Shown: piece by piece, positions 225 through 10,167 of the stretch | Layout: every line of letters starts with the position of its first letter | Position numbering within the stretch: the first letter of the stretch is position 1 | Origin: an uncultured Chloroflexia bacterium | Lineage (GTDB): Bacteria > Chloroflexota > Limnocylindria > Limnocylindrales > CSP1-4 | Reading direction: 5' to 3' | Length of the DNA: 64,000 nt | Assembly (NCBI GenBank): GCA_963783135.1 | Contig: CAWAMH010000007.1 | Span: forward strand, 1,044,672-1,108,671 | The notes under the pieces: generated by a model | Told to the model about the DNA's origin: nothing | The model's database searches: none | The model's input: only the letters and a program-made list of their open reading frames with translations | Position numbers and translations under genes: made by a program

Positions 225-500
225 ATGACCATCGACGACCGACCGCCGGCCGGGCCGACCGCCCGGCCCGACGTGACCCTCCAGCGCGTGGGTCGCGAGG
301 CGATCCTCCACGACAGCCGGAACGGGCAGGCGCATGTCATCAACGGCACCGCCGCGCAGCTCTGGGAGCTGTGCGACGGGCGGCCGCACGATGAGCTCGT
401 CGCCGCCTTCGCCGCCGTCTACGGTCGCGAGCCGGAGACGGTCGCCGCCGACGTCGATCGGACACTCGCCGGGTTCGCCTCGCTGGGGCTGCTGGCTTGA
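225..500 (+). CDS. PqqD-family RiPP recognition element (RRE) / peptide chaperone
   Basis: 91 aa with the PqqD pattern (EAILHD...HVINGTAAQLWELCDG...YG...VAADVDRTLAGF..LGLL); AAGGTGAG upstream; stop overlaps next TTG start. Confidence 0.88.
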   Translation: MTIDDRPPAGPTARPDVTLQRVGREAILHDSRNGQAHVINGTAAQLWELCDGRPHDELVAAFAAVYGREPETVAADVDRTLAGFASLGLLA

Positions 501-1438
501 GTCCAGCCGGGGGGCAGGCCGAGGGTCCAGCGCCGAGCGACGGGGCGACCGCCGTCGCTCGCTACGACATCCACGGCGTCCAGCTCCTGGTCCGGTCCAA
601 CGACCCTGCAGTGCTTCGCCGGGTCCATGACACCTACGGCTGGTTCGCCGACACCGAGCGCCGGATGACCGGCCACGGCTCGCTGGCGACCGTGGAGGTC
701 GCCTTCGTGCGCGCCGCCGACGGCGGCGTCACGGTGATCGACGCGGAGGGCGAGGCCGTCCGGTGGGACGCGCGCGACGAGCCGCTCGTCGTCCTGTTCG
801 ACGCGATCGTGGCCGGAGTGATCGCCGCCCTGTCACGGATCGGCGTCCTCGCGATCCACGCGGGCGTGGTCGCCGACAACGGTCACGCGATCCTGGTGGC
901 CGGGCGGAGCGGGCGCGGCAAGACGACGCTGGTCCTCGGGCTGCTCCGGCGCGGACTCGACCTGCAGTCCGACGAACTGGCCCTGGTCGCCCAGGACGAC
1001 CGGACGATCCTCGCCTATCCTCGGGCCCTCCACATCCGGCCGGCGGCCCTCGACCTGTTCCCGGAGCTCGGCTTCCTGACCGCCGTCGAGCCGCACGAGC
1101 TCGGCGGTGGGAGCGAGTGGGCGGTCGGGCCGGCTGCCCTCCGACAGGCGTTCGATACCCGGCTCGTCGATGTGGCCCGGCTGTCCGCGGTGATCCTGCT
1201 CGATGGCGACCCCGTCGCGGACGCCGAGCCCGACCTCACGCCGGTCCGTCCGGCGATCGCGACGATGGAGCTCGTCCGCGGGACCCCGGCCGCCGCCTGG
1301 GAGTTCGACGCGGTGTTGTCCCGCCTGTCGCGCGTCGTCGGCGACATGCCGTGTGCGCGGATCCGGTCCGGACGCCTCGAGGACACGGTCGACGCGGTCC
1401 TGGCCTTCGCCGGCCAGACCGCCGGGGCCGCGCGATGA
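497..1438 (+). CDS. HPr kinase-related P-loop kinase (putative peptide kinase)
   Basis: IHAGVV...GRSGRGKTT Walker A followed by SDE.A motif typical of HprK-like kinases; coupled to both neighbours by overlapping stop/start. Confidence 0.8.
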   Translation: MSPAGGQAEGPAPSDGATAVARYDIHGVQLLVRSNDPAVLRRVHDTYGWFADTERRMTGHGSLATVEVAFVRAADGGVTVIDAEGEAVRWDARDEPLVVLFDAIVAGVIAALSRIGVLAIHAGVVADNGHAILVAGRSGRGKTTLVLGLLRRGLDLQSDELALVAQDDRTILAYPRALHIRPAALDLFPELGFLTAVEPHELGGGSEWAVGPAALRQAFDTRLVDVARLSAVILLDGDPVADAEPDLTPVRPAIATMELVRGTPAAAWEFDAVLSRLSRVVGDMPCARIRSGRLEDTVDAVLAFAGQTAGAAR

Positions 1439-2076
1439 CCGGCGTCGGTCCCTTCGGCGCGCCCGAGCGGGCCGGCCTCGAGGGCGAGGCACCCGCCGCC
1501 GACTCGCGGCGACTCGCGCGAGTGGCGTTGTTCGCGCGCTACCGGCGCGAGCGAACGGCCGCGTGGATCGAGGCGAGCGGACCGAGCATGCAGCCCACGA
1601 TCCACCCGGGCGATCGCCTCTTGGTCGCCTTCGGCCAGCGTCCCGAGCGGACGGGTCAGGTCATCCTGTGTGCGATCGACGGCGTGTTCGTCGCGCATCG
1701 GCTCGTGGCCCACCGGCTCGTCGCCGTCGGGGCGGACGCTCCCGTCGTCCGGCTCATCGCCAAGGGTGACGCGGAGGCACTGCCCGACCGGTCGATCGCC
1801 GTCGACGACGTCGTCGGCGTGATCCGGGCGATCCGGCGGAGCGACGGACGGATCGTGACCGCCGGACTCGACGACACCTCGGGCGCGATCGTCGCCCGCA
1901 TCTCGTGGTGGAGCGGCGCGGTGGCCCGTGTCGGTCGCCGGCTCACCCGCCATGCACCCGCGCGGACCGGGCGACCCGTGTCCACGACGCTACTCATCCT
2001 GTCCCGGGTCCCGACCCGGTTGATCACGGCACTCATGCCCTGGTTCGTCCAGGAGACTCGTGCGGAAGGGAGGTGA
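1435..2076 (+). CDS. S24/S26-family (signal peptidase I-like) peptidase, putative leader peptidase
   Basis: SGPSMQPTIHPGD (catalytic Ser box), VAHRL, KGDA; ATG at 1435 overlaps kinase stop (ATGA); no clear N-terminal TM helix. Confidence 0.78.
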   Translation: MTGVGPFGAPERAGLEGEAPAADSRRLARVALFARYRRERTAAWIEASGPSMQPTIHPGDRLLVAFGQRPERTGQVILCAIDGVFVAHRLVAHRLVAVGADAPVVRLIAKGDAEALPDRSIAVDDVVGVIRAIRRSDGRIVTAGLDDTSGAIVARISWWSGAVARVGRRLTRHAPARTGRPVSTTLLILSRVPTRLITALMPWFVQETRAEGR

Positions 2077-2082
2077 CCGGAT

Positions 2083-2184
2083 ATGGAATACGAGAGCCCC
2101 GAGATCATCGCCAGCTACGTCGAAGACGAGCTCGTGGAGGATGCCGCGGTCTGCACCCGCTACTGCGACTTCCAGATCAACTGA
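2083..2184 (+). CDS. Putative RiPP precursor peptide 1 (33 aa, MEYESPEIIASYVEDELVEDAAVCTRYCDFQIN)
   Basis: Translated by hand; GGAGGTGA RBS overlapping the peptidase stop; YxxP leader motif; paralog immediately downstream. Confidence 0.85.
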   Translation: MEYESPEIIASYVEDELVEDAAVCTRYCDFQIN

Positions 2185-2248
2185 TCCAGCGTGCCCATGA
2201 CCTGACCTGGCAGGCATCCAGGAATCCACTCGGAGGGAGGTGATACCT

Positions 2249-2359
2249 ATGGAGTACGAGAGCCCCGAGATCCTCGCCAGCTATGCTGAGGAGGAGCTCG
2301 TCGAGGATGCCGCGGTCTGCACCCGCTACTGCGACTTCCCGAACTTCTTGCACGGCTGA
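2249..2359 (+). CDS. Putative RiPP precursor peptide 2 (36 aa, MEYESPEILASYAEEELVEDAAVCTRYCDFPNFLHG)
   Basis: Translated by hand; GGAGGTGA RBS; near-identical to precursor 1 with several synonymous changes in this frame. Confidence 0.85.
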   Translation: MEYESPEILASYAEEELVEDAAVCTRYCDFPNFLHG

Positions 2360-2372
2360 CCGCCCACACCGT

Positions 2373-2420
2373 GATCCAGGGGCGGCCGGCGACACCCAGG
2401 TCCCGAGCCGCCCCTGGATC
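2373..2420 (+). terminator. Strong stem-loop downstream of precursor genes (mRNA stabiliser/attenuator)
   Basis: Perfect 14-bp inverted repeat GATCCAGGGGCGGC (2373-2386) / GCCGCCCCTGGATC (2407-2420); no U-tract. Confidence 0.55.
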
Positions 2421-2483: not shown

Positions 2484-3551
2484 ATGACCTACGCCATCGA
2501 GACCGAATCGCTCACGAAACGATTCCGGCCACTCCGGTCCTATCGCGACCTCGTCTCGCCGGCCCGCCGGGTCGAGCGGACCGCGGTCAGCGAGGTGAAC
2601 CTCCGGATCCCGCCCGGCCAGGTCTTCGGCCTGCTCGGCCAGAACGGCGCCGGTAAGACGACCCTCATCCGGATGCTCACCACCCTGCTCCTGCCGACGA
2701 CCGGGACGGCCCGGGTCGCGGGCTTCGATGTCGCCCAGGAACCGCACGCCGTGCGGGCCAAGATCGGCCTCGTGAGCGGCGACGAGCGCTCGTTCTACTG
2801 GCGCCTGACGGGCCGCCAGAACCTCGAGTTCTTCGCCGCTCTGCAGCACCTGCCGGCGGCGCTGACCCCCGGCCGGATCGCCGACCTCGCCGAGCGACTC
2901 GGGATCGCGGAGCACCTCGACCGGCCGTTCGGTCACCTGTCCACCGGTCAGCGCCAGAAGCTGGCGATCGCCCGCGGTCTGATGAGCGAGCCCGAGATCC
3001 TGTTCATGGATGAGCCGACCCGATCGCTCGATCCGATCTCGGCCGTGGCGATCCGCGAGTTCGTCGCCGAGCACATCGTCGGGGAGCTCGGCTCGAGCGT
3101 CGTCCTCGCGACCCACTCGATGCCCGAGGCGGAGGCGCTCTGCCGGAAGATCGCGTTCATCCAGGACGGCAGGATCGTGGCGGAGGGCTCCGTCGCCGAG
3201 CTGCGCCGGGCCATCGGCTATGGGATCCGCTGCGAGCTGCGTCTCGCACCGGGAGCCGGCACTGCGGGCGTCGACCTGGACCGCCTCCCGGGCGTGCTCG
3301 AAGTGCTGCCGGCCGCCGCCCCGATCGCCCCGTCGGCGAGCGAGCCGACCGAGCCAGGCCCGCTCGTCGTCCGGCTGACGCTGGCCGAGGAGGACGCCCT
3401 GGCCGGGATCCTGCGAGCACTCGTCGTGGCCGGCGCCGACGTCGTCGGTTGCGAGACCCGCGACCTGTCGCTCGAGGAGATCTACGTCCACACGCTCGCG
3501 GCGGGGGCGGCGGCCGCGCCTCGACTCGTCAGCCAGACGGTCGCTCGATGA
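2484..3551 (+). CDS. ABC transporter ATP-binding protein
   Basis: GQNGAGKTT Walker A, LSTGQRQK signature, ILFMDEPT Walker B, ATH switch; start placed at MTYAIETESL. Confidence 0.93.
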   Translation: MTYAIETESLTKRFRPLRSYRDLVSPARRVERTAVSEVNLRIPPGQVFGLLGQNGAGKTTLIRMLTTLLLPTTGTARVAGFDVAQEPHAVRAKIGLVSGDERSFYWRLTGRQNLEFFAALQHLPAALTPGRIADLAERLGIAEHLDRPFGHLSTGQRQKLAIARGLMSEPEILFMDEPTRSLDPISAVAIREFVAEHIVGELGSSVVLATHSMPEAEALCRKIAFIQDGRIVAEGSVAELRRAIGYGIRCELRLAPGAGTAGVDLDRLPGVLEVLPAAAPIAPSASEPTEPGPLVVRLTLAEEDALAGILRALVVAGADVVGCETRDLSLEEIYVHTLAAGAAAAPRLVSQTVAR

Positions 3552-4396
3552 CCGCCGCCACGGCCCGAAGCCCCCGCGGCGGCCTCGCGGTCGCGGCCCG
3601 CGTCCCGGTCGCGTTCTTCCGGCGCGATCGGATCATCGAGACCAGCTACCGGGCGGGGTTCGTCCTCCGGCTCGGGAGCAGCCTCGTCACCGTGCTGGTG
3701 TTCTTCTTCATCAGCCACGCCTTCGGGGCGGCGGTATCGACCCAGATCCAGACCAACGGCGCCGGCTACTTCGCGTTCGTGATCGTCGGCGTGGCCCTGT
3801 CCGAGTTCCTGTCGATGTCGGTCGGCGGGATCGGCGGCAGCCTGCGCGAGAGCCAGACGACCGGGACGCTGGAGCTCATGCTCCTCAGCCCGACGCGGCT
3901 GTCGGTGCTCATGACCTCCTCGGCGCTCTGGCTCCAGGTCTCGGCCGCGATCGGCGCGGTCACCTACCTCGTGGCCGGCGCCCTGCTCGGGGCGGACTTC
4001 TCACACGCCGATGTGTTCGCGACGGCCGGCGCCATGGTCGTCACGATGATCGGCTTCACCGGCATGGGCCTGCTCGCCGGCGCGGTGGTCATCGTGATCA
4101 AGCGCGGCAACCCGGTCGGCTGGCTGCTCCGCGGCGCGTCGGTGGTTCTCGGCGGTGTGTTCTACCCGACCGAGATCCTGCCGCCGCTGCTCCAGGCGCT
4201 CGGCCAGCTGCTGCCGATGACCCACGCCCTCGTGATCCTGCGGGGATCGATCTTCCTGGGCCTCGGCATCAACGACATGCTCCCCCAGTTCGTCGCGCTC
4301 GTCCTGACGAGCTTCTTCTACTACGGCCTCGGCCTGTTCGCCTGTGCGACCGCGATCCGCTACGCGCGGACCGACGGCAGCCTCGCGCAGTACTGA
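3548..4396 (+). CDS. ABC-2 type exporter permease
   Basis: Six hydrophobic segments, ESQTTGTLELMLLSP, GGVFYP..LP..LQ...LLPMTH; ATGA overlap with ATPase. Confidence 0.9.
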   Translation: MTAATARSPRGGLAVAARVPVAFFRRDRIIETSYRAGFVLRLGSSLVTVLVFFFISHAFGAAVSTQIQTNGAGYFAFVIVGVALSEFLSMSVGGIGGSLRESQTTGTLELMLLSPTRLSVLMTSSALWLQVSAAIGAVTYLVAGALLGADFSHADVFATAGAMVVTMIGFTGMGLLAGAVVIVIKRGNPVGWLLRGASVVLGGVFYPTEILPPLLQALGQLLPMTHALVILRGSIFLGLGINDMLPQFVALVLTSFFYYGLGLFACATAIRYARTDGSLAQY

Positions 4397-4407: not shown

Positions 4408-5542
4408 ATGCGCCGCGTGGCGGACCTCGACCGCGAGACGCAGGCGATCTGCCTCGGGGCGCGGACCGTCGTCGACCCACCCGCGGCCGCCGCCCTGGGC
4501 GGGCTCGTCCGGGGCGGTCTCGACTGGGATCGGATGTGGGATCTCGGCCACCGCCACGACGTCCTGCCGCTGCTCGCCGAGACCCTGCCTCCGGCGGCCG
4601 CCGCGGCCGGTGGGGCCGTCCCGGGAGAATGGCTCGAACGGGCCACCCGGCGCCGGCACGTGACGCTGCTCAAGAACGCGCGGATGGCCGATGCCCTCCA
4701 GACCGTGCTCGCCAGGCTCGGCGAGGCGGACGTGCCGGCGATCCCGGTCAAGGGACTCGTCCTGGCCGAGAGCCTGTACGGGACGCTCGCGGCTCGCGGC
4801 GCGGCCGATCTCGACGTGCTCGTCCAGCCGGCGGACCTCGACGCCGCGCGCCGGGTCCTGGTCGAGGTCGGCTACCGTCAGCGGCCCGATCCCACGTTCA
4901 CCGCACTCGTCCACGAATTCCACGACCCGCCCGTGGTACGTCCCGGCCGGCAACGAGATGGTCCGGCTCGAACTCCATCGCGACCTGTGGGCGGACCGGT
5001 TCTTCCGGTCGGACGCGGAGGGGCTCTGGGCGCGCTCGGTCGAGGGCACGCTCCTTGGCCGGCCGACCCGGCTGCTGTCGTGGGAGGACACGCTCATCCA
5101 TCTCGCGATCCATCGCAGCCGGTCGCCGCTCCGGCTGCGCTGGGTGTGCGACATCGCCGAGCTGCTGCGACGCCATGGCGACGAGCTCGACTGGGACGCG
5201 GTCGCCGTCCGCGCCGAGCGCGTCGGGGCGCGGACCTCGACCTGGGTCGTCCTGTCGATGGCCGAGCGGTTCCTCGGCAGCGCACCGCCGGCCGGGACGC
5301 TCGAACGGTTCCGGATCGGGCGGGCGAAAGCGACGCTCCTCGAGCGGACGTGTGGCGGCGAGGCGACCTTCCGGGCCGCGCCGCCCGGCGACACCGACCA
5401 GACGCCGCATCTCACGCTGCGGGTCTTCGAGCAGGACGGCGCGGGTCAGATCGCCCGGGCGCTGGGCTCGAGCATCCGCCGGTCGACCCGCCGGATCCTC
5501 CACGAGGCCGGCATCCGCCGGGTCCGCCACGACCCGACCTGA
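4408..5542 (+). CDS. Nucleotidyltransferase family protein (NTP_transf_5-like), split by a +1 frameshift near 4930
   Basis: N-half VKGLVLAESLYG...R...DLDVLV in ORF 4408; C-half LELH...LIHLAIH...LRWVCDIAELL...LDWD in ORF ending 5542; removing one C in GACCCGCCCGTGG joins them. Confidence 0.82.
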
Positions 5543-5551
5543 GCTCCGGCC

Positions 5552-6610
5552 CTAGGCCTCCTCGCGCTCGACCGCGACACGCGTCGCCGGCGCGACCGTG
5601 GAGCTCGCCGTCGGGACATCGGAGACGTTCGGCACGAAGGACGCGGCGAGCGACGTCTCGGCCGCACGGCGCTGATCGTCGAGCGACAGGATCCCCAGCC
5701 GGCCGAGCGAGGTGAGCTCGTCGCGGATGTACGTCTTGAGCATCTCGGGACCGTCCGTGTTGATCGTGAACCGGATCCCGTTGCGCCGGAACTGGTCGAA
5801 GATCCAGCGGAACTCGTCCCAGCCCGACACGACCCGGGTGTTGAGGTTCGACGTCGGGCAGATCTCGAGGACGATGCCGCGGTCGGCGAGCATCGCCATC
5901 GCGCGCGGGTCGTAGGCCGCCTTGACCCCGTGGCCGATCCGGTCGGGCTCGAGCAGCTCGATGACCCGGGCGACCTCCTCGACCGGCCCGGCCTCGCCGG
6001 TGTGGACGGTCAGGCCCAGCCCGAACTGACGGGCCCGGCGGAACAGCCGCCGGTAGTCGGCGACGCGGAACGTGGCCGACTCGGGCCCGGCGATGTCGAT
6101 CCCGACGACGCCCCGGTCGCGCCAGGCGATCGCCTTCTCGACGAGGATCTCGTTGAGCTCGAACGGGAAGGCCCGGTCCAGGCAGAAGATCAGCCCGGGC
6201 TTGACCGGATACTCGAGGGTCGCCTTGTCCATCCCGCGCAGCGCGGCCGCGATGATGTGGTCGAGGTCCTGCTCGCCGCCCCGGTTCCGCTTCATCGGGT
6301 TGAACCGCAGCTCGGTCGTCGTGATGTTGTTCTTGCGATAGGCGCCGCCGATGACCTCGTAGACGGCGCGCTCGACGGCCAGCGGGCTCGACTGGATGAG
6401 CTCGGTCCAGTGGAACAGCTGGAGGTAGCCGTCGAAGCTCCGCGCCCGACGCGGCGAGACCGTGATCAGGTCGCGGAACTCCCAGTAGTCCTTCGTCGGG
6501 AGCTTGATGCCCTGGGCGTGGGCGATGCCCCACATGATCGCCGGGGTGACCGCGCCGCCGAGGTGACAGTGGAGGTCGGCGAGGGGGATCTTGCGCGAGA
6601 GCTGGGCCAT
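5552..6610 (-). CDS. add: Adenosine deaminase family protein
   Basis: DLHCHLGG, GIDIAGPE, TVHTGEAG, RIGHG, EICPTSN, INTDGP motifs. Confidence 0.88.
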   Translation of the reverse strand: MAQLSRKIPLADLHCHLGGAVTPAIMWGIAHAQGIKLPTKDYWEFRDLITVSPRRARSFDGYLQLFHWTELIQSSPLAVERAVYEVIGGAYRKNNITTTELRFNPMKRNRGGEQDLDHIIAAALRGMDKATLEYPVKPGLIFCLDRAFPFELNEILVEKAIAWRDRGVVGIDIAGPESATFRVADYRRLFRRARQFGLGLTVHTGEAGPVEEVARVIELLEPDRIGHGVKAAYDPRAMAMLADRGIVLEICPTSNLNTRVVSGWDEFRWIFDQFRRNGIRFTINTDGPEMLKTYIRDELTSLGRLGILSLDDQRRAAETSLAASFVPNVSDVPTASSTVAPATRVAVEREEA

Positions 6611-6641
6611 GGCCCCAGCATAGCGCCGGCGGGACCGACGC

Positions 6642-7712
6642 TCAGCCCGCCATCGCCCCCGGCACGATCCGGCCGTCGGAGTCGACGATCGCCCGGCGAC
6701 GGGCCGCCCGGAGCTCGGCGCCCGGGACCTGGTCGCGGGCGTGGTAGCTCGAGCGCACGAGCGGACCCGATTCGACGTGTCGGAACCCGAGCGCGAGGGC
6801 CTCGGCCTTCATCTCCGCGAACTCGTCCGGGTGGTAGTAGCGCTCGAGCGGCAGATGCGCGAGCGACGGCCGCAGGTACTGGCCGATCGTGAGGATGTCG
6901 ACATCGGCCGTCCGGAGCGCCGTGAACGCCTCGGTCAGCTCCGGGCGTGTCTCGCCGAGACCGACCATCAGGCTCGACTTGGTGTGGACCGGGTAGCCGA
7001 TGTCCTCGGCCATGGCCTTGGCCCGCTCGAGGACGTACAGGCTGCGCTCCCAGCGGGCGCGCTTGCGGACCGGCTTCTGAAGCCGGCGGACCGTCTCGAG
7101 GTTGTGGTTGAGGATGTCGGGTCGGGCGTCCATGACCGTCCGGAGCCGGTCGTCCGAGCCGTCGAAGTCCGGGATGAGGACCTCGATGCCCATCCCCGGA
7201 CAGGCCCCCCGAAGCCGGCCGATGGTCTCGGCGAAGATGCGCGACCCACCGTCCGGCAGGTCGTCGCGGGCCACGCTCGTGATGACGACGTGCTCGAGCC
7301 CCAGGGCGGCCACCGCTTCGGCGACGCGCCGTGGCTCGTCGTCATCGAACCAGGTCGGCCGGCCCGTCTTGACCGCGCAGAACCCGCACGCCCGGGTGCA
7401 GGTGTCGCCGAGGATCATGATCGTCGCGGTCCGCTGGTCCCAGCACTCGCCGATGTTCGGGCAGTGGGCCTCCTCGCAGACCGTGTTCAGGGACAGGCCC
7501 CGGAGCAGGCCCTTGAGCTCGTGGTAGTTGTCGCCGGACGGGATCCTCGCCCGGATCCAGTCGGGATGACGGCGGAGCGGGATCGAGCCATCGCTGGCCG
7601 GACCGATCGAACCGCCACCGAGCGCGATCGTGGCCGGCAGGGCGACGACGCCGTCGGCGGCTCCGTGCGCGTGGCCGGTGGGTGGGTCGAACATCGGGAG
7701 CTCGCGGGCCAT
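6642..7712 (-). CDS. lipA: Lipoyl synthase (radical SAM)
   Basis: CEEAHCPNIGEC, CTRACGFC and RSSYHA motifs; start at MARELP. Confidence 0.96.
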   Translation of the reverse strand: MARELPMFDPPTGHAHGAADGVVALPATIALGGGSIGPASDGSIPLRRHPDWIRARIPSGDNYHELKGLLRGLSLNTVCEEAHCPNIGECWDQRTATIMILGDTCTRACGFCAVKTGRPTWFDDDEPRRVAEAVAALGLEHVVITSVARDDLPDGGSRIFAETIGRLRGACPGMGIEVLIPDFDGSDDRLRTVMDARPDILNHNLETVRRLQKPVRKRARWERSLYVLERAKAMAEDIGYPVHTKSSLMVGLGETRPELTEAFTALRTADVDILTIGQYLRPSLAHLPLERYYHPDEFAEMKAEALALGFRHVESGPLVRSSYHARDQVPGAELRAARRRAIVDSDGRIVPGAMAG

Positions 7713-8739: not shown

Positions 8740-10167
8740 TCAGTAGATGGCGGTCTCGGGTCCGACCGCCTCCAGCCAGGCCTTGACGGTTCGCAGGAAC
8801 GCGGCGCCGCCGGCGCCGTCGTTCGCCCGATGATCGATCCCCAGGACCATGTTCATCACCGGGCGGATCGCGATCGCGTCACCCGTCGGCGACTCGACGA
8901 CGACCGCTCGCTTCGTGATCGCCTCCATCGTGAGGATGGCGACCTCCGGCACGTTGATGATCGGCATCGTCAGGTTCGAGCCAAGCCAGCCGGTGTTGTC
9001 GATGGTGAATGTGCCCCCACCGAAGTCGTCGAGCCGGAGCTTGCCGGCCCGGGCTCGGGCCGCGACATCGGCGATGGCCCGGTTCAACCCGGCGATCGAC
9101 AGCGCGTCGACGTCGCGGACGACCGGCACGATGAGGCCATCGTCGACGGCCACGGCGACCCCGACGTTGACCCGGCGCTTGGCCAGCAGCCCGGCGTCGG
9201 TCCAGTGGGCGTTGAACTCGGCGTGGCGACGCAGGGCCTCGACGCTCGCCTTCACGACGAACGGGACGTAGCTGAGCGACAAGCCCTCTCGAGCCTGGAA
9301 GTCGCGCTTCGCCGACTCGCGCAGCCGGACGAGGTTCGTGGCGTCGACCTCCATCGAGACGTACGCGTGCGGCACGGCCAGCGCCCGGGTCATCTGGGCG
9401 CTGATGCCCTTGCGCATCTGGGTCATCGGGACGAGGACCTCGTCCGCGCCGGGCGGGAACTCGATCGACGACGACGGGCTCGGGGTCGCGGCGCGCGGGC
9501 TGCCGGTCACCGGCGTCGTCGGCGGCGGCGCGGCCGAGGGGGCACCCTGGGCACCGACCGGCTGGCCGGTCCGGACGGACTCGACGTGGTCGATGACGTC
9601 CTCGCGGGTGATCCGCCCCCCGCCGCCCGTGCCGACGATCTGGGCGGCAGTGAGTCCGTGCTCTCGGAGGAGCCGACGGACCGCCGGCGTCATCCGGGCG
9701 TCGGGGTCGCCGCGGAGCTCCGTCGTCTCCGAGCCGGCGGCCATCGGGACCGCCGTCGGCGTGGCCGGGACCGGTCGCTCGTCCGACCCGGCCGGGCCGT
9801 TCGCGGCGGCCGGCGGCGCCGGCGGCTGCTGGGCGATCGTCAGCGCCGCCGCTTCCCGGGCCGCAGCCCCCGGGTCGCTCGCGGGCGCCGGAGCCGCAGC
9901 GTCGGCAGCGGCGCTGTCGGACGGCGCTGCGTCGCTCGTCTCGATGACCGCGATCTCGGCGTTGTTCGGGACCGTCTCGCCCTCCTCGACGAGGATCTCG
10001 GTCAGCGTGCCCTCGAACGGCGAGGGGACCTCGGCGTTGACCTTGTCGGTGATGACCTCGAGGAGCGGCTCGTAGCGCGCGACGTGGTCGCCGGGCTGCT
10101 TGAGCCATTTCCCGATCGTCCCCTCGGCGACGCTCTCACCGAGCTGGGGCATGGTCACCTTGGCCAC
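8740..10167 (-). CDS. 2-oxoacid dehydrogenase E2, dihydrolipoamide acyltransferase
   Basis: MPQLGESV...TDKVNAEVPSP lipoyl domain, TPAVRRL...GTGGGGRIT E3-binding domain, DHRANDG catalytic motif; GTG start with GGAGGA RBS. Confidence 0.93.
   Translation of the reverse strand: MAKVTMPQLGESVAEGTIGKWLKQPGDHVARYEPLLEVITDKVNAEVPSPFEGTLTEILVEEGETVPNNAEIAVIETSDAAPSDSAAADAAAPAPASDPGAAAREAAALTIAQQPPAPPAAANGPAGSDERPVPATPTAVPMAAGSETTELRGDPDARMTPAVRRLLREHGLTAAQIVGTGGGGRITREDVIDHVESVRTGQPVGAQGAPSAAPPPTTPVTGSPRAATPSPSSSIEFPPGADEVLVPMTQMRKGISAQMTRALAVPHAYVSMEVDATNLVRLRESAKRDFQAREGLSLSYVPFVVKASVEALRRHAEFNAHWTDAGLLAKRRVNVGVAVAVDDGLIVPVVRDVDALSIAGLNRAIADVAARARAGKLRLDDFGGGTFTIDNTGWLGSNLTMPIINVPEVAILTMEAITKRAVVVESPTGDAIAIRPVMNMVLGIDHRANDGAGGAAFLRTVKAWLEAVGPETAIY

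Follow-up and report, generated by a model that had tools for sequence, protein, structure and literature searches.

Tandem small genes of an uncultured Limnocylindrales bacterium as probable precursors in a pathway resembling that of linear phosphorylated peptides

Two small tandem genes, here called A5 and A6, lie at positions 2083 to 2359 of a 64,000-nt stretch of DNA (71% GC; hereafter the window) from an uncultured member of the Limnocylindrales (Chloroflexota; assembly GCA_963783135.1, contig CAWAMH010000007.1; 3.4 Mb in 8 contigs, 86% complete). A5 and A6 are genuine precursor genes, and we consider them, with a probability of about 0.7, to be two of six precursors in a pathway for peptides made on the ribosome and modified after translation (RiPPs) of the linear phosphorylated peptide (LPP) type; that the locus encodes an LPP-like pathway in some form is likelier still. 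It would be a distant Chloroflexota variant of a family known since 2026, in which a tyrosine is predicted to replace the serine.

The precursor genes and their family

The initial annotation of this DNA had described two tandem small open reading frames (ORFs), each preceded by a GGAGGTGA ribosome-binding site (RBS), and the description was borne out in detail. A5 (2083..2184, plus strand) encodes 33 aa, from an ATG at 2083 to a stop codon at 2182-2184, and A6 (2249..2359, plus strand) encodes 36 aa, from an ATG at 2249 to a stop codon at 2357-2359; for A6 the automatic ORF list gave an in-frame GTG at 2240 as the start, which was refined to the ATG. The Shine-Dalgarno sequences GGAGGTGA, as read from the DNA, occupy 2069..2076 for A5, overlapping the stop codon of a peptidase gene, and 2236..2243 for A6, both on the plus strand, with 9 and 8 nt, respectively, between GGAGG and ATG. 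Within their first 30 residues the two products share 27, with mismatches at positions 9, 13 and 15, and they diverge past C-D-F; the synonymous changes reported for them (GAA/GAG in codons 2 and 14, TAC/TAT in codon 12, GTG/GTC in codon 18) were likewise confirmed. They have the layout of RiPP-type tandem precursors, with an acidic, conserved leader bearing a YxxP motif and a variable tail, and the gene for a PqqD-type RiPP recognition element (RRE) adjoins. If the leader spans residues 1-24, as proposed for both, the cores would be T-R-Y-C-D-F-Q-I-N in A5 and T-R-Y-C-D-F-P-N-F-L-H-G in A6.

Both precursors of the initial annotation are thus real, but there are six in total, and the cluster begins upstream of the window. 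The upstream DNA was analyzed as locus L001, whose coordinates equal the window coordinates plus 10000. There A1 to A4 (A4 with GTG as its start codon) occupy 9371-9472, 9531-9632, 9701-9799 and 9871-9972, which places them 29-630 bases upstream of window position 1; their junction reads S-T-C-Y or S-T-F-Y. A profile made from the six peptides found exactly those six in their own genome. A soil-metagenome DNA contig fuses position 2136 to 2303, skipping 166 bases, to give a hybrid gene with the leader of A5 and the tail of A6, so that tandem copy number differs among strains.

It could be argued that A5 and A6 are chance ORFs, or short translated peptides left unmodified, as spurious ORFs are abundant in high-GC DNA and the evidence is at the level of DNA and RNA libraries. 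We regard this as highly improbable, since it is contradicted by purifying selection confined to the peptide frame. Over codons 2-27 of the 54 distinct copies from the genus, the Nei-Gojobori method gave proportions of synonymous and nonsynonymous differences (pS and pN) of 0.423 and 0.126 and a dN/dS of 0.22, whereas the two shifted frames of this DNA gave pN/pS of 1.61 and 1.73, with stops in 5/54 and 34/54 copies. The peptide reading frame is under purifying selection, and its preservation in homologous DNA, on which the initial annotation had staked its claim, was found. The presence of RBSs, the conservation of the leader across the family alongside hypervariable tails, the constant position of the precursors directly 3' of a peptidase gene, and contigs from RNA libraries also speak against chance ORFs. 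RBS-like sequences (GGAG, GAGG or AGGA) stand upstream of 115 of the 136 family ORFs found by regular expression, 8 of which begin at non-genuine start codons because the expression accepted any Leu or Val codon.

Metatranscriptome contigs from two runs belonging to two studies are 98-99% identical to positions 2059-2338, and a 196-nt contig over 2137-2332, present in both runs with 2 mismatches, bridges A5 and A6. These contigs are a hint, short of proof, that both genes are transcribed. In the two RNA libraries the depth is zero at 1500-2035, in the peptidase gene, and at 2371-2571, where DNA runs continue; zero cover by itself counts as no finding, and it hints weakly at precursor transcripts that end before or at a hairpin following A6. 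Contigs of the RNA libraries with loose ends at 2130 (X19) and 2296 (X20) continue into different leader/core sequence, which means that those libraries contain further precursors as well, whether paralogues or orthologues.

Precursors of the family are 32-37 aa long. They carry the N-terminal motif Y-x-x-P-E-I/V-I/L and, further on, ..E-L-x-x-E-A-A-V-[S/C/A]-x-x-Y, and the proposed cores of about 8-12 aa are hypervariable (median length beyond residue 24 of 10-16 residues in the groups of the family). The peptide profile matched 13 of 18 other genomes of the genus, with 1-7 matches each, 12 of them strongly (E at most 2.2e-14) and one weakly; neither 6 genomes from the family's other genera nor 16 small genomes from a second family yielded a match. 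When 185,579 species genomes were scanned for the pattern, 20 loci emerged, each of them in a metagenome-assembled genome titled Chloroflexota, Chloroflexia, Limnocylindrales or Anaerolineaceae, and a metagenome scan gave 51 loci. Against 1.84 billion representative proteins the profile produced 85 matches at E at most 1e-3, nearly all of 30-70 residues, and one related kinase is labelled 'Candidatus Limnocylindrales bacterium' by its source. The family is real and patchy, and has been found so far only in Chloroflexota-labelled or unlabelled environmental DNA. A search of the ESM Atlas with A5 returned only unnamed small-protein clusters (0.83-0.85); the nearest named entries, a type-A lantibiotic (0.77) and a lasso leader (0.76), both fall below the level at which they would be more than a lead.

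A conserved cassette and its likeness to LPP clusters

The genes follow one another in the order SufR/ArsR-type helix-turn-helix (HTH) regulator, kinase K1, peptidase S26_1, A1-A4, RRE, kinase K2, peptidase S26_2, A5-A6, hairpin, ABC ATPase, ABC-2 permease and PF14907 nucleotidyltransferase, flanked by a gene for acyl-CoA dehydrogenase and, at the opposite end, by those for adenosine deaminase and lipoyl synthase. The regulator (L001 6914-7630), the HprK-like K1, a paralogue of K2 (L001 7852-8799), and the SipW-like S26_1 (L001 8792-9364) lie upstream of the window. The proteins of the genome were mapped onto related loci by tblastn, counting genes as far as each contig extends. RRE, kinase, signal peptidase I-like peptidase, one or more precursors, ABC ATPase, ABC-2 permease and PF14907 gene were syntenic in 13/13 loci of the genus and 8/8 loci of other Limnocylindrales, and these 21 loci share one chromosomal location. 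In its minimal form (L027, L028) the cassette comprises HTH, RRE, kinase, peptidase, a single precursor, ABC ATPase, permease and nucleotidyltransferase. The full gene set was also present in a genome from another family of the phylum (G401), and the same neighbours were found in 16 of the 25 metagenome loci of at least 2.4 kb (58-71% GC), where the nucleotidyltransferase gene sometimes stands at the front. The cassette genes of several relatives appeared split into pieces in tblastn.

A gene set of this kind has been described for LPPs (Popov et al., Nat Commun 2026;17:6633; PMC13381572). In the lpp cluster of Paenibacillus alginolyticus DSM5050 the core set consists of the SipW-like peptidase LppS (catalytic residues S29, H68 and D93), the discrete RRE LppB, the HprK-like kinase LppK, the NTP transferase LppN, for which the authors detected no effect in their host, and an MsbA-like exporter. 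The precursors, one to three in number and 35-200 aa long, carry the motif YxxPxVLxHQxIxFETxxS and variable C-termini. LppK adds up to four phosphates to core Ser3, leaving S3A, S3T and S3Y variants unphosphorylated, and LppS cleaves after T-1 with LppB required; mutations of F-3, E-2 and T-1 lower cleavage, and mutations of core residues 1-5 leave it unimpaired. LPPs are stated to occur only in Bacillota, and their function and final structure are given as unknown (PMC13381572). A literature search found no second paper on LPPs.

The Chloroflexota cassettes resemble the lpp cluster by gene content and precursor layout, the enzymes being set against the LPP proteins by description. This likeness may stem from common descent or from parallel assembly out of lasso-type parts. 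In all mapped cassettes a SipW-type signal peptidase I homologue is encoded next to a discrete RRE, or with the kinase alone between them. An HprK-like kinase belongs to the cluster (family scores under the curated cut-offs, with Walker A motif and fold in agreement), as do an NTP transferase (PF14907) and one or more precursors whose N-terminus carries YxxPx[V/I][L/I] and whose C-termini vary; the mapped cassettes contain neither a macrolactam cyclase nor a B2 protease. A conserved hydroxyl residue stands three residues past a small junction residue in both systems, as T-x-x-S with the cut after T in LPP and as [S/C/A]-x-x-Y here. The two differ in host, Chloroflexota here and Bacillota according to that paper, and in the junction itself, A-V-[S/C/A]-x-x-Y as opposed to F-E-T-x-x-S, with a conserved Tyr in place of Ser. 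Precursors are shorter here (32-37 aa, with the short cores noted above, as compared with 35-200 aa and a 45-aa core), a genome may have as many as 7 precursor matches together with duplicated kinase and peptidase modules, and the cluster lies outside a capsule locus and not beside a lasso cluster.

The discrete RRE (225..500, plus strand, 91 aa) matches PF05402 at 4.1e-13, scored on the longer open frame 3-500, and the lasso PqqD model NF033530 at 3.3e-07, under its cut-off; among PDB sequences it weakly matches TfuB1 and TbiB1, both of them lasso B1 proteins (E 0.11-0.13). It lies just over the cut-off of TIGR04353, 'HPr-rel-A system PqqD family peptide chaperone' (36.5 bits vs 35), and a literature search for the HPr-rel-A system, TIGR04352 or TIGR04353 found no paper. 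The RRE is conserved across 25 aligned loci. A two-chain model with A5 reached an ipSAE of 0.55 (runs of 0.59, 0.55 and 0.54) as against 0.03 for the best control, the runs sharing at least 84% of contacts with a partner pLDDT of at least 55; among 80 solved complexes 58 pass the mark set for this score, as do 2 of 110 mismatches, but at 0.60 or less only 7 of the 80 do so, along with both mismatches. The model lends weak support to binding of the A5 leader by the RRE, and because similar RRE-leader complexes have already been solved, its pass may reflect likeness to them.

The P-loop kinase K2 (497..1438, plus strand, 313 aa) matches TIGR04352 (HprK_rel_A), the best NCBIfam match of both kinases, at 1.4e-13 and PF07475 at 0.0011, both under cut-off. 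Across 34 aligned sequences, little or no variation is seen in the Walker A motif G-x-S-G-x-G-K-T-T and in a D-E pair. In Foldseek searches with the AlphaFold2 model of K2 (pLDDT 88.7), phosphoenolpyruvate (PEP) carboxykinases came top (E 4e-8) and HprK/P (2qmh) ranked 45-47 (E 2e-5), two groups of known structural kinship; PDB sequences gave marginal HprK matches only. Most kinase homologues (P0002-P0115) bear the precomputed Pfam label PF27840.1, whose name might already cover this kinase family.

S26_2 (1435..2076, plus strand) is a homologue of signal peptidase I of the archaeal/ER type (SipW/SEC11-like), with matches to PF00717 (1.9e-06) and TIGR02228 (sigpep_I_arch, 6.7e-06). Its top PDB sequence match is SEC11C (7p2q, E 8e-4), with which the SM-P, HR and KGD..D motifs align; SEC11A also aligns. 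An alignment of 47 copies shows S-M-x-P, H-R and K-G-D..D to be conserved. Since most homologues are 195 aa long, the start of S26_2 may lie about 18 codons further downstream. The Ser, His and Asp motifs are those of SipW/SEC11. Unlike in that group, the substrate would be a cytoplasmic, RRE-bound leader rather than a Sec signal peptide, and the homologues, of about 195 aa, have a conserved C-terminal extension. The region of the catalytic His (window 1690-1720, residues about 86-96) contains a tandem five-residue duplication, A-H-R-L-V-A-H-R-L-V, unseen in the SEC11 alignment.

The nucleotidyltransferase gene (4408..5542, plus strand; LppN/PsmN-type) matches PF14907 at 4.7e-24 on its first half. 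The D-x-D-V-L-V motif is conserved in 23 copies, and the model of an orthologue (pLDDT 76.8) matched the folds of ANT(2'')-Ia, MenT, LnuA and FKRP (E 5e-4 to 2e-2), resembling the O-nucleotidyltransferases ANT(2'')-Ia and LnuA and the MenT toxins, and FKRP more weakly; PDB sequences gave no match. From their conserved catalytic motifs and the agreeing fold searches, the enzymes of the cassette look active.

The exporter would consist of a DrrA-like ABC ATP-binding subunit (2484..3551, plus strand; PF00005 at 4.9e-29, TIGR01188 drrA at 3.9e-70, under cut-off) and an ABC-2 permease (3548..4396, plus strand; PF01061 ABC2_membrane at 2.3e-11). The start of the permease was set at the ATG at 3548 because its ATGA overlaps the stop of the ATPase gene, the automatic ORF start being a TTG at 3449. 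Between A6 and the exporter genes lies a GC-rich hairpin (2373..2420, plus strand) with 21-nt arms that are 86% complementary and a predicted RNA fold of -44.8 kcal/mol (z -4.85), which 0 of 200 shuffles equalled; it has no U-run. The equivalent intergenic stretch has z below -2 in 26 of 32 loci though its sequence differs by lineage. The hairpin is possibly an attenuator or an RNA-stabilizing stem.

The junction, the acceptor residue and competing chemistries

Conservation around the proposed junction was counted over 130 unique peptides, the sum of three groups (54 from the genus, 19 from other Limnocylindrales and 57 from the metagenome group). Position 22 is A in 119/130, position 23 is V in 124/130, position 24 is S, C or A in 129/130 and position 27 is Y in 124/130, positions 25, 26 and 28 onward being variable. 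Substrates of signal peptidase I follow the classical rule of small residues at -3 and -1 (A-x-[small]), and the residues before the proposed cut fit it. As only small residues occur at position 24, with Ala at position 22, position 24 reads better as the -1 residue of a signal-peptidase-type site; a cut after residue 24, suggested by this pattern, is about an even bet. Such a cut would make Tyr27 core residue 3, the place of Ser3 in LppA. In five distant members (L072, L079, L080, L088 and L091) the tail that follows C-x-x-Y-G consists nearly entirely of Gly, or of Gly plus Pro, for instance runs of 14-24 Gly with Asn at the end.

The initial annotation had proposed that Thr or Tyr of the core accepts a phosphate or a nucleotide. 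A hydroxyl acceptor agrees well with an HprK-like kinase and a PF14907 protein, and Tyr27 is kept throughout most of the family, but Thr25 is unconserved: it is present in 48/54 genus copies and elsewhere gives way to residues such as M, V, Q, C, H and G. Because Ser and Thr are both missing beyond position 24 in 24 of the 125 unique Y27 peptides, Tyr27 would be the sole hydroxyl common to all if all are O-phosphorylated in the core. In LPP, core residues 1-5 are dispensable for cleavage and Ser3 is the site of the kinase, so that, by analogy, conservation of a core residue would speak for the kinase over the peptidase. On the pattern of conservation Tyr27 is our candidate acceptor, at odds a little short of even.

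The pathway may also be of LPP type with a different acceptor, either a Ser or Thr that varies among members (Thr25 in A5 and A6, for instance) or some other group, in which case A-V-[S/C/A]-x-x-Y would be a recognition or cleavage determinant of the peptidase-RRE complex only. The S3Y and S3T variants that LppK leaves unphosphorylated would fit this, as would the fact that the HprK-family kinases characterized so far act on Ser (PMC8498205), and the frequency of Thr25 (48/54) and Ser24 (35/54) in the genus. We nevertheless consider it unlikely, given that Tyr27 is the only hydroxyl shared family-wide, that many of the Y27 peptides devoid of Ser/Thr beyond position 24 have Ala or Cys at position 24 itself, and that residues 1-5 of the LPP core are dispensable for cleavage (PMC13381572).

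A further proposal of the initial annotation, that the two Cys of C-T-R-Y-C in A5 and A6 form a ring (disulfide or thioether) or a metal site around a phosphorylated or nucleotidylated Thr or Tyr, with the tails setting specificity, did not hold up when the family was considered. Cys occurs in 19/54 genus copies at each of positions 24 and 28, and in 56/57 copies of the metagenome group at position 24. However, Cys24 is replaced by Ser in 35/54 genus copies and by Ala in 12/19 copies from other Limnocylindrales, position 28 is mostly Gly (also C, D, T, S and others), and A1-A4 each hold one Cys only, located elsewhere. The replacement of Cys24 and the variability of position 28 leave a CxxxC ring or metal site unsupported. 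The conserved cassette includes no oxidase, radical SAM maturase, cyclase or lanthionine-type enzyme, and the nearby lipoyl synthase is a housekeeping neighbour that is absent from distant cassettes. We rate this chemistry as very unlikely.

Phosphorylation is also known in lasso peptides. In paeninodin and pseudomycoidin an HPr-kinase homologue acts on the C-terminal Ser of the linear precursor, and in the pseudomycoidin pathway PsmN, a PF14907-type protein, adds hexose to the phosphate (PMC8498205). The cassette shares with those systems the HPr-kinase homologue, the PF14907-type transferase, the PqqD-type RRE and the [Y/W]xxP leader. It differs from them in that the C-terminal residue is variable (15 different residues among the 54 genus copies, Ser only once) and in the absence of cyclase and B2 protease; the product would be linear.

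A5 and A6 might still be lasso precursors served by a cyclase and B2 protease encoded elsewhere in the genome or in its unassembled part, given their YxxP leader, the lasso B1 proteins among the nearest PDB and NCBIfam neighbours of the RRE, the known role of HprK-like kinases and PF14907 transferases in lasso tailoring (PMC8498205) and a genome that is only 86% complete. This reading was rejected, and we give it very little credence: searches of the genome for PF00733 (the Asn-synthase-type cyclase) and PF13471 (the B2 protease) returned nothing above cut-off, and neither enzyme was found in any mapped syntenic cassette. A lasso core would start with G, A, S or C, carry Asp or Glu at position 7-9 and be long enough to form a ring with a threaded tail. 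Here no acidic residue is conserved after the junction, 8-12 residues of core do not suffice for both ring and tail, and the cassette has a dedicated signal peptidase I-like leader peptidase instead.

Several observations weigh against an LPP-type pathway with Tyr27 as its acceptor. As regards the chemistry, the acceptor residue, the cleavage site and polyphosphorylation are themselves inferred, and since LppK, the sole characterized LPP kinase, leaves S3Y and S3T unphosphorylated, a Tyr acceptor would need altered specificity. An alternative cut after residue 25 would leave V and T as residues -3 and -1, on the pattern of F-E-T in LPP, and place Tyr at +2, although position 25 is poorly conserved. 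The element H-Q-x-I-x-F-E-T-x-x-S of the LPP precursors is absent, the spacing from YxxP to the junction is 6 residues longer here, and a two-component ABC-2 exporter takes the place of the MsbA-like exporter of LPP.

As regards the enzymes, K2 and K1 score 50.6 and 63 bits, respectively, with TIGR04352, far under its cut-off of 200, and are thus very distant from the family described, and the peptidases also fall under the cut-off of TIGR02228. Protein searches returned no match named Bacillota among 120 for the kinase (most unnamed, the names being of Chloroflexota type plus one Phycisphaerae) or among 70 for the peptidase (most unnamed, the names of Chloroflexota type only). In this assembly the nucleotidyltransferase gene carries a 1-nt frameshift near 4931 (window 4925-4935): tblastn of an intact 375-aa orthologue aligned to 4408-4932 in frame +1 and to 4931-5533 in frame +2. 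The frameshift may be a long-read indel error or mark a real pseudogene; the gene is intact in orthologues, for example at 5688-6815 of locus L021.

As regards distribution and expression, the family is rare in the phylum, with 3 of 401 genomes matched in an even sample that included the source genome; of the other two, G401 was matched strongly and G163 weakly (E 4e-4, within a 195-aa frame), the latter match being probably spurious. Nine of the 25 metagenome loci of at least 2.4 kb (L060, L094, L095, L096, L098, L099, L101, L103 and L104) have no cassette gene in the available DNA; their peptides belong to a subgroup with M-x-x-Y-V-R-P-E, and in L103 the 8 kb on each side hold, by Pfam, unrelated metabolic genes (M20 peptidase, GH2, alpha/beta-hydrolase, aminotransferase and adenosine deaminase). 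It follows that some precursors either have their genes apart from those of the enzymes or are part of something else. Finally, contaminating DNA may be the source of the RNA-library contigs.

Proposed pathway and significance

From the genes, their conservation and synteny, the purifying selection on the peptides, the catalytic motifs and the RNA-library contigs, we infer the following chemical steps for the LPP-type pathway. The discrete RRE would bind the leader through its Y-x-x-P-E-I/V-I/L motif, by analogy with lasso B1 proteins and LppB, and would hand the peptide to the HprK-like kinase, which would phosphorylate Tyr27, possibly several times. The SipW/SEC11-type homologue would then remove the leader, likeliest after residue 24, with A22 as -3 and [S/C/A]24 as -1. 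Speculatively, the PF14907 nucleotidyltransferase may further decorate the phosphate, as PsmN does in the pseudomycoidin pathway, and the two-component ABC-2 exporter would secrete the hypervariable product of 8-12 residues. If each of these steps took place as proposed, this would be the first ribosomal peptide family in which an RRE-guided P-loop kinase of HprK/PEP carboxykinase fold (poly)phosphorylates Tyr, with secreted phosphotyrosine peptides of 8-12 residues encoded in arrays of up to seven per genome, a possibility that we put forward tentatively and at odds well below even.

Should Tyr (poly)phosphorylation prove correct, LPP chemistry would be confined neither to Bacillota nor to serine, and with Tyr as the acceptor a new post-translational modification would be added to those of RiPPs. 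A Chloroflexota version would show greater age or mobility than believed for the module that unites RRE, HprK-like kinase and SipW-type peptidase. The occurrence of Tyr here as opposed to Ser would offer a natural test of acceptor specificity for this kinase family, for which dozens of short natural core variants, easily synthesized and assayed, are at hand, and a syntenic locus of an abundant uncultured soil lineage would gain a function.

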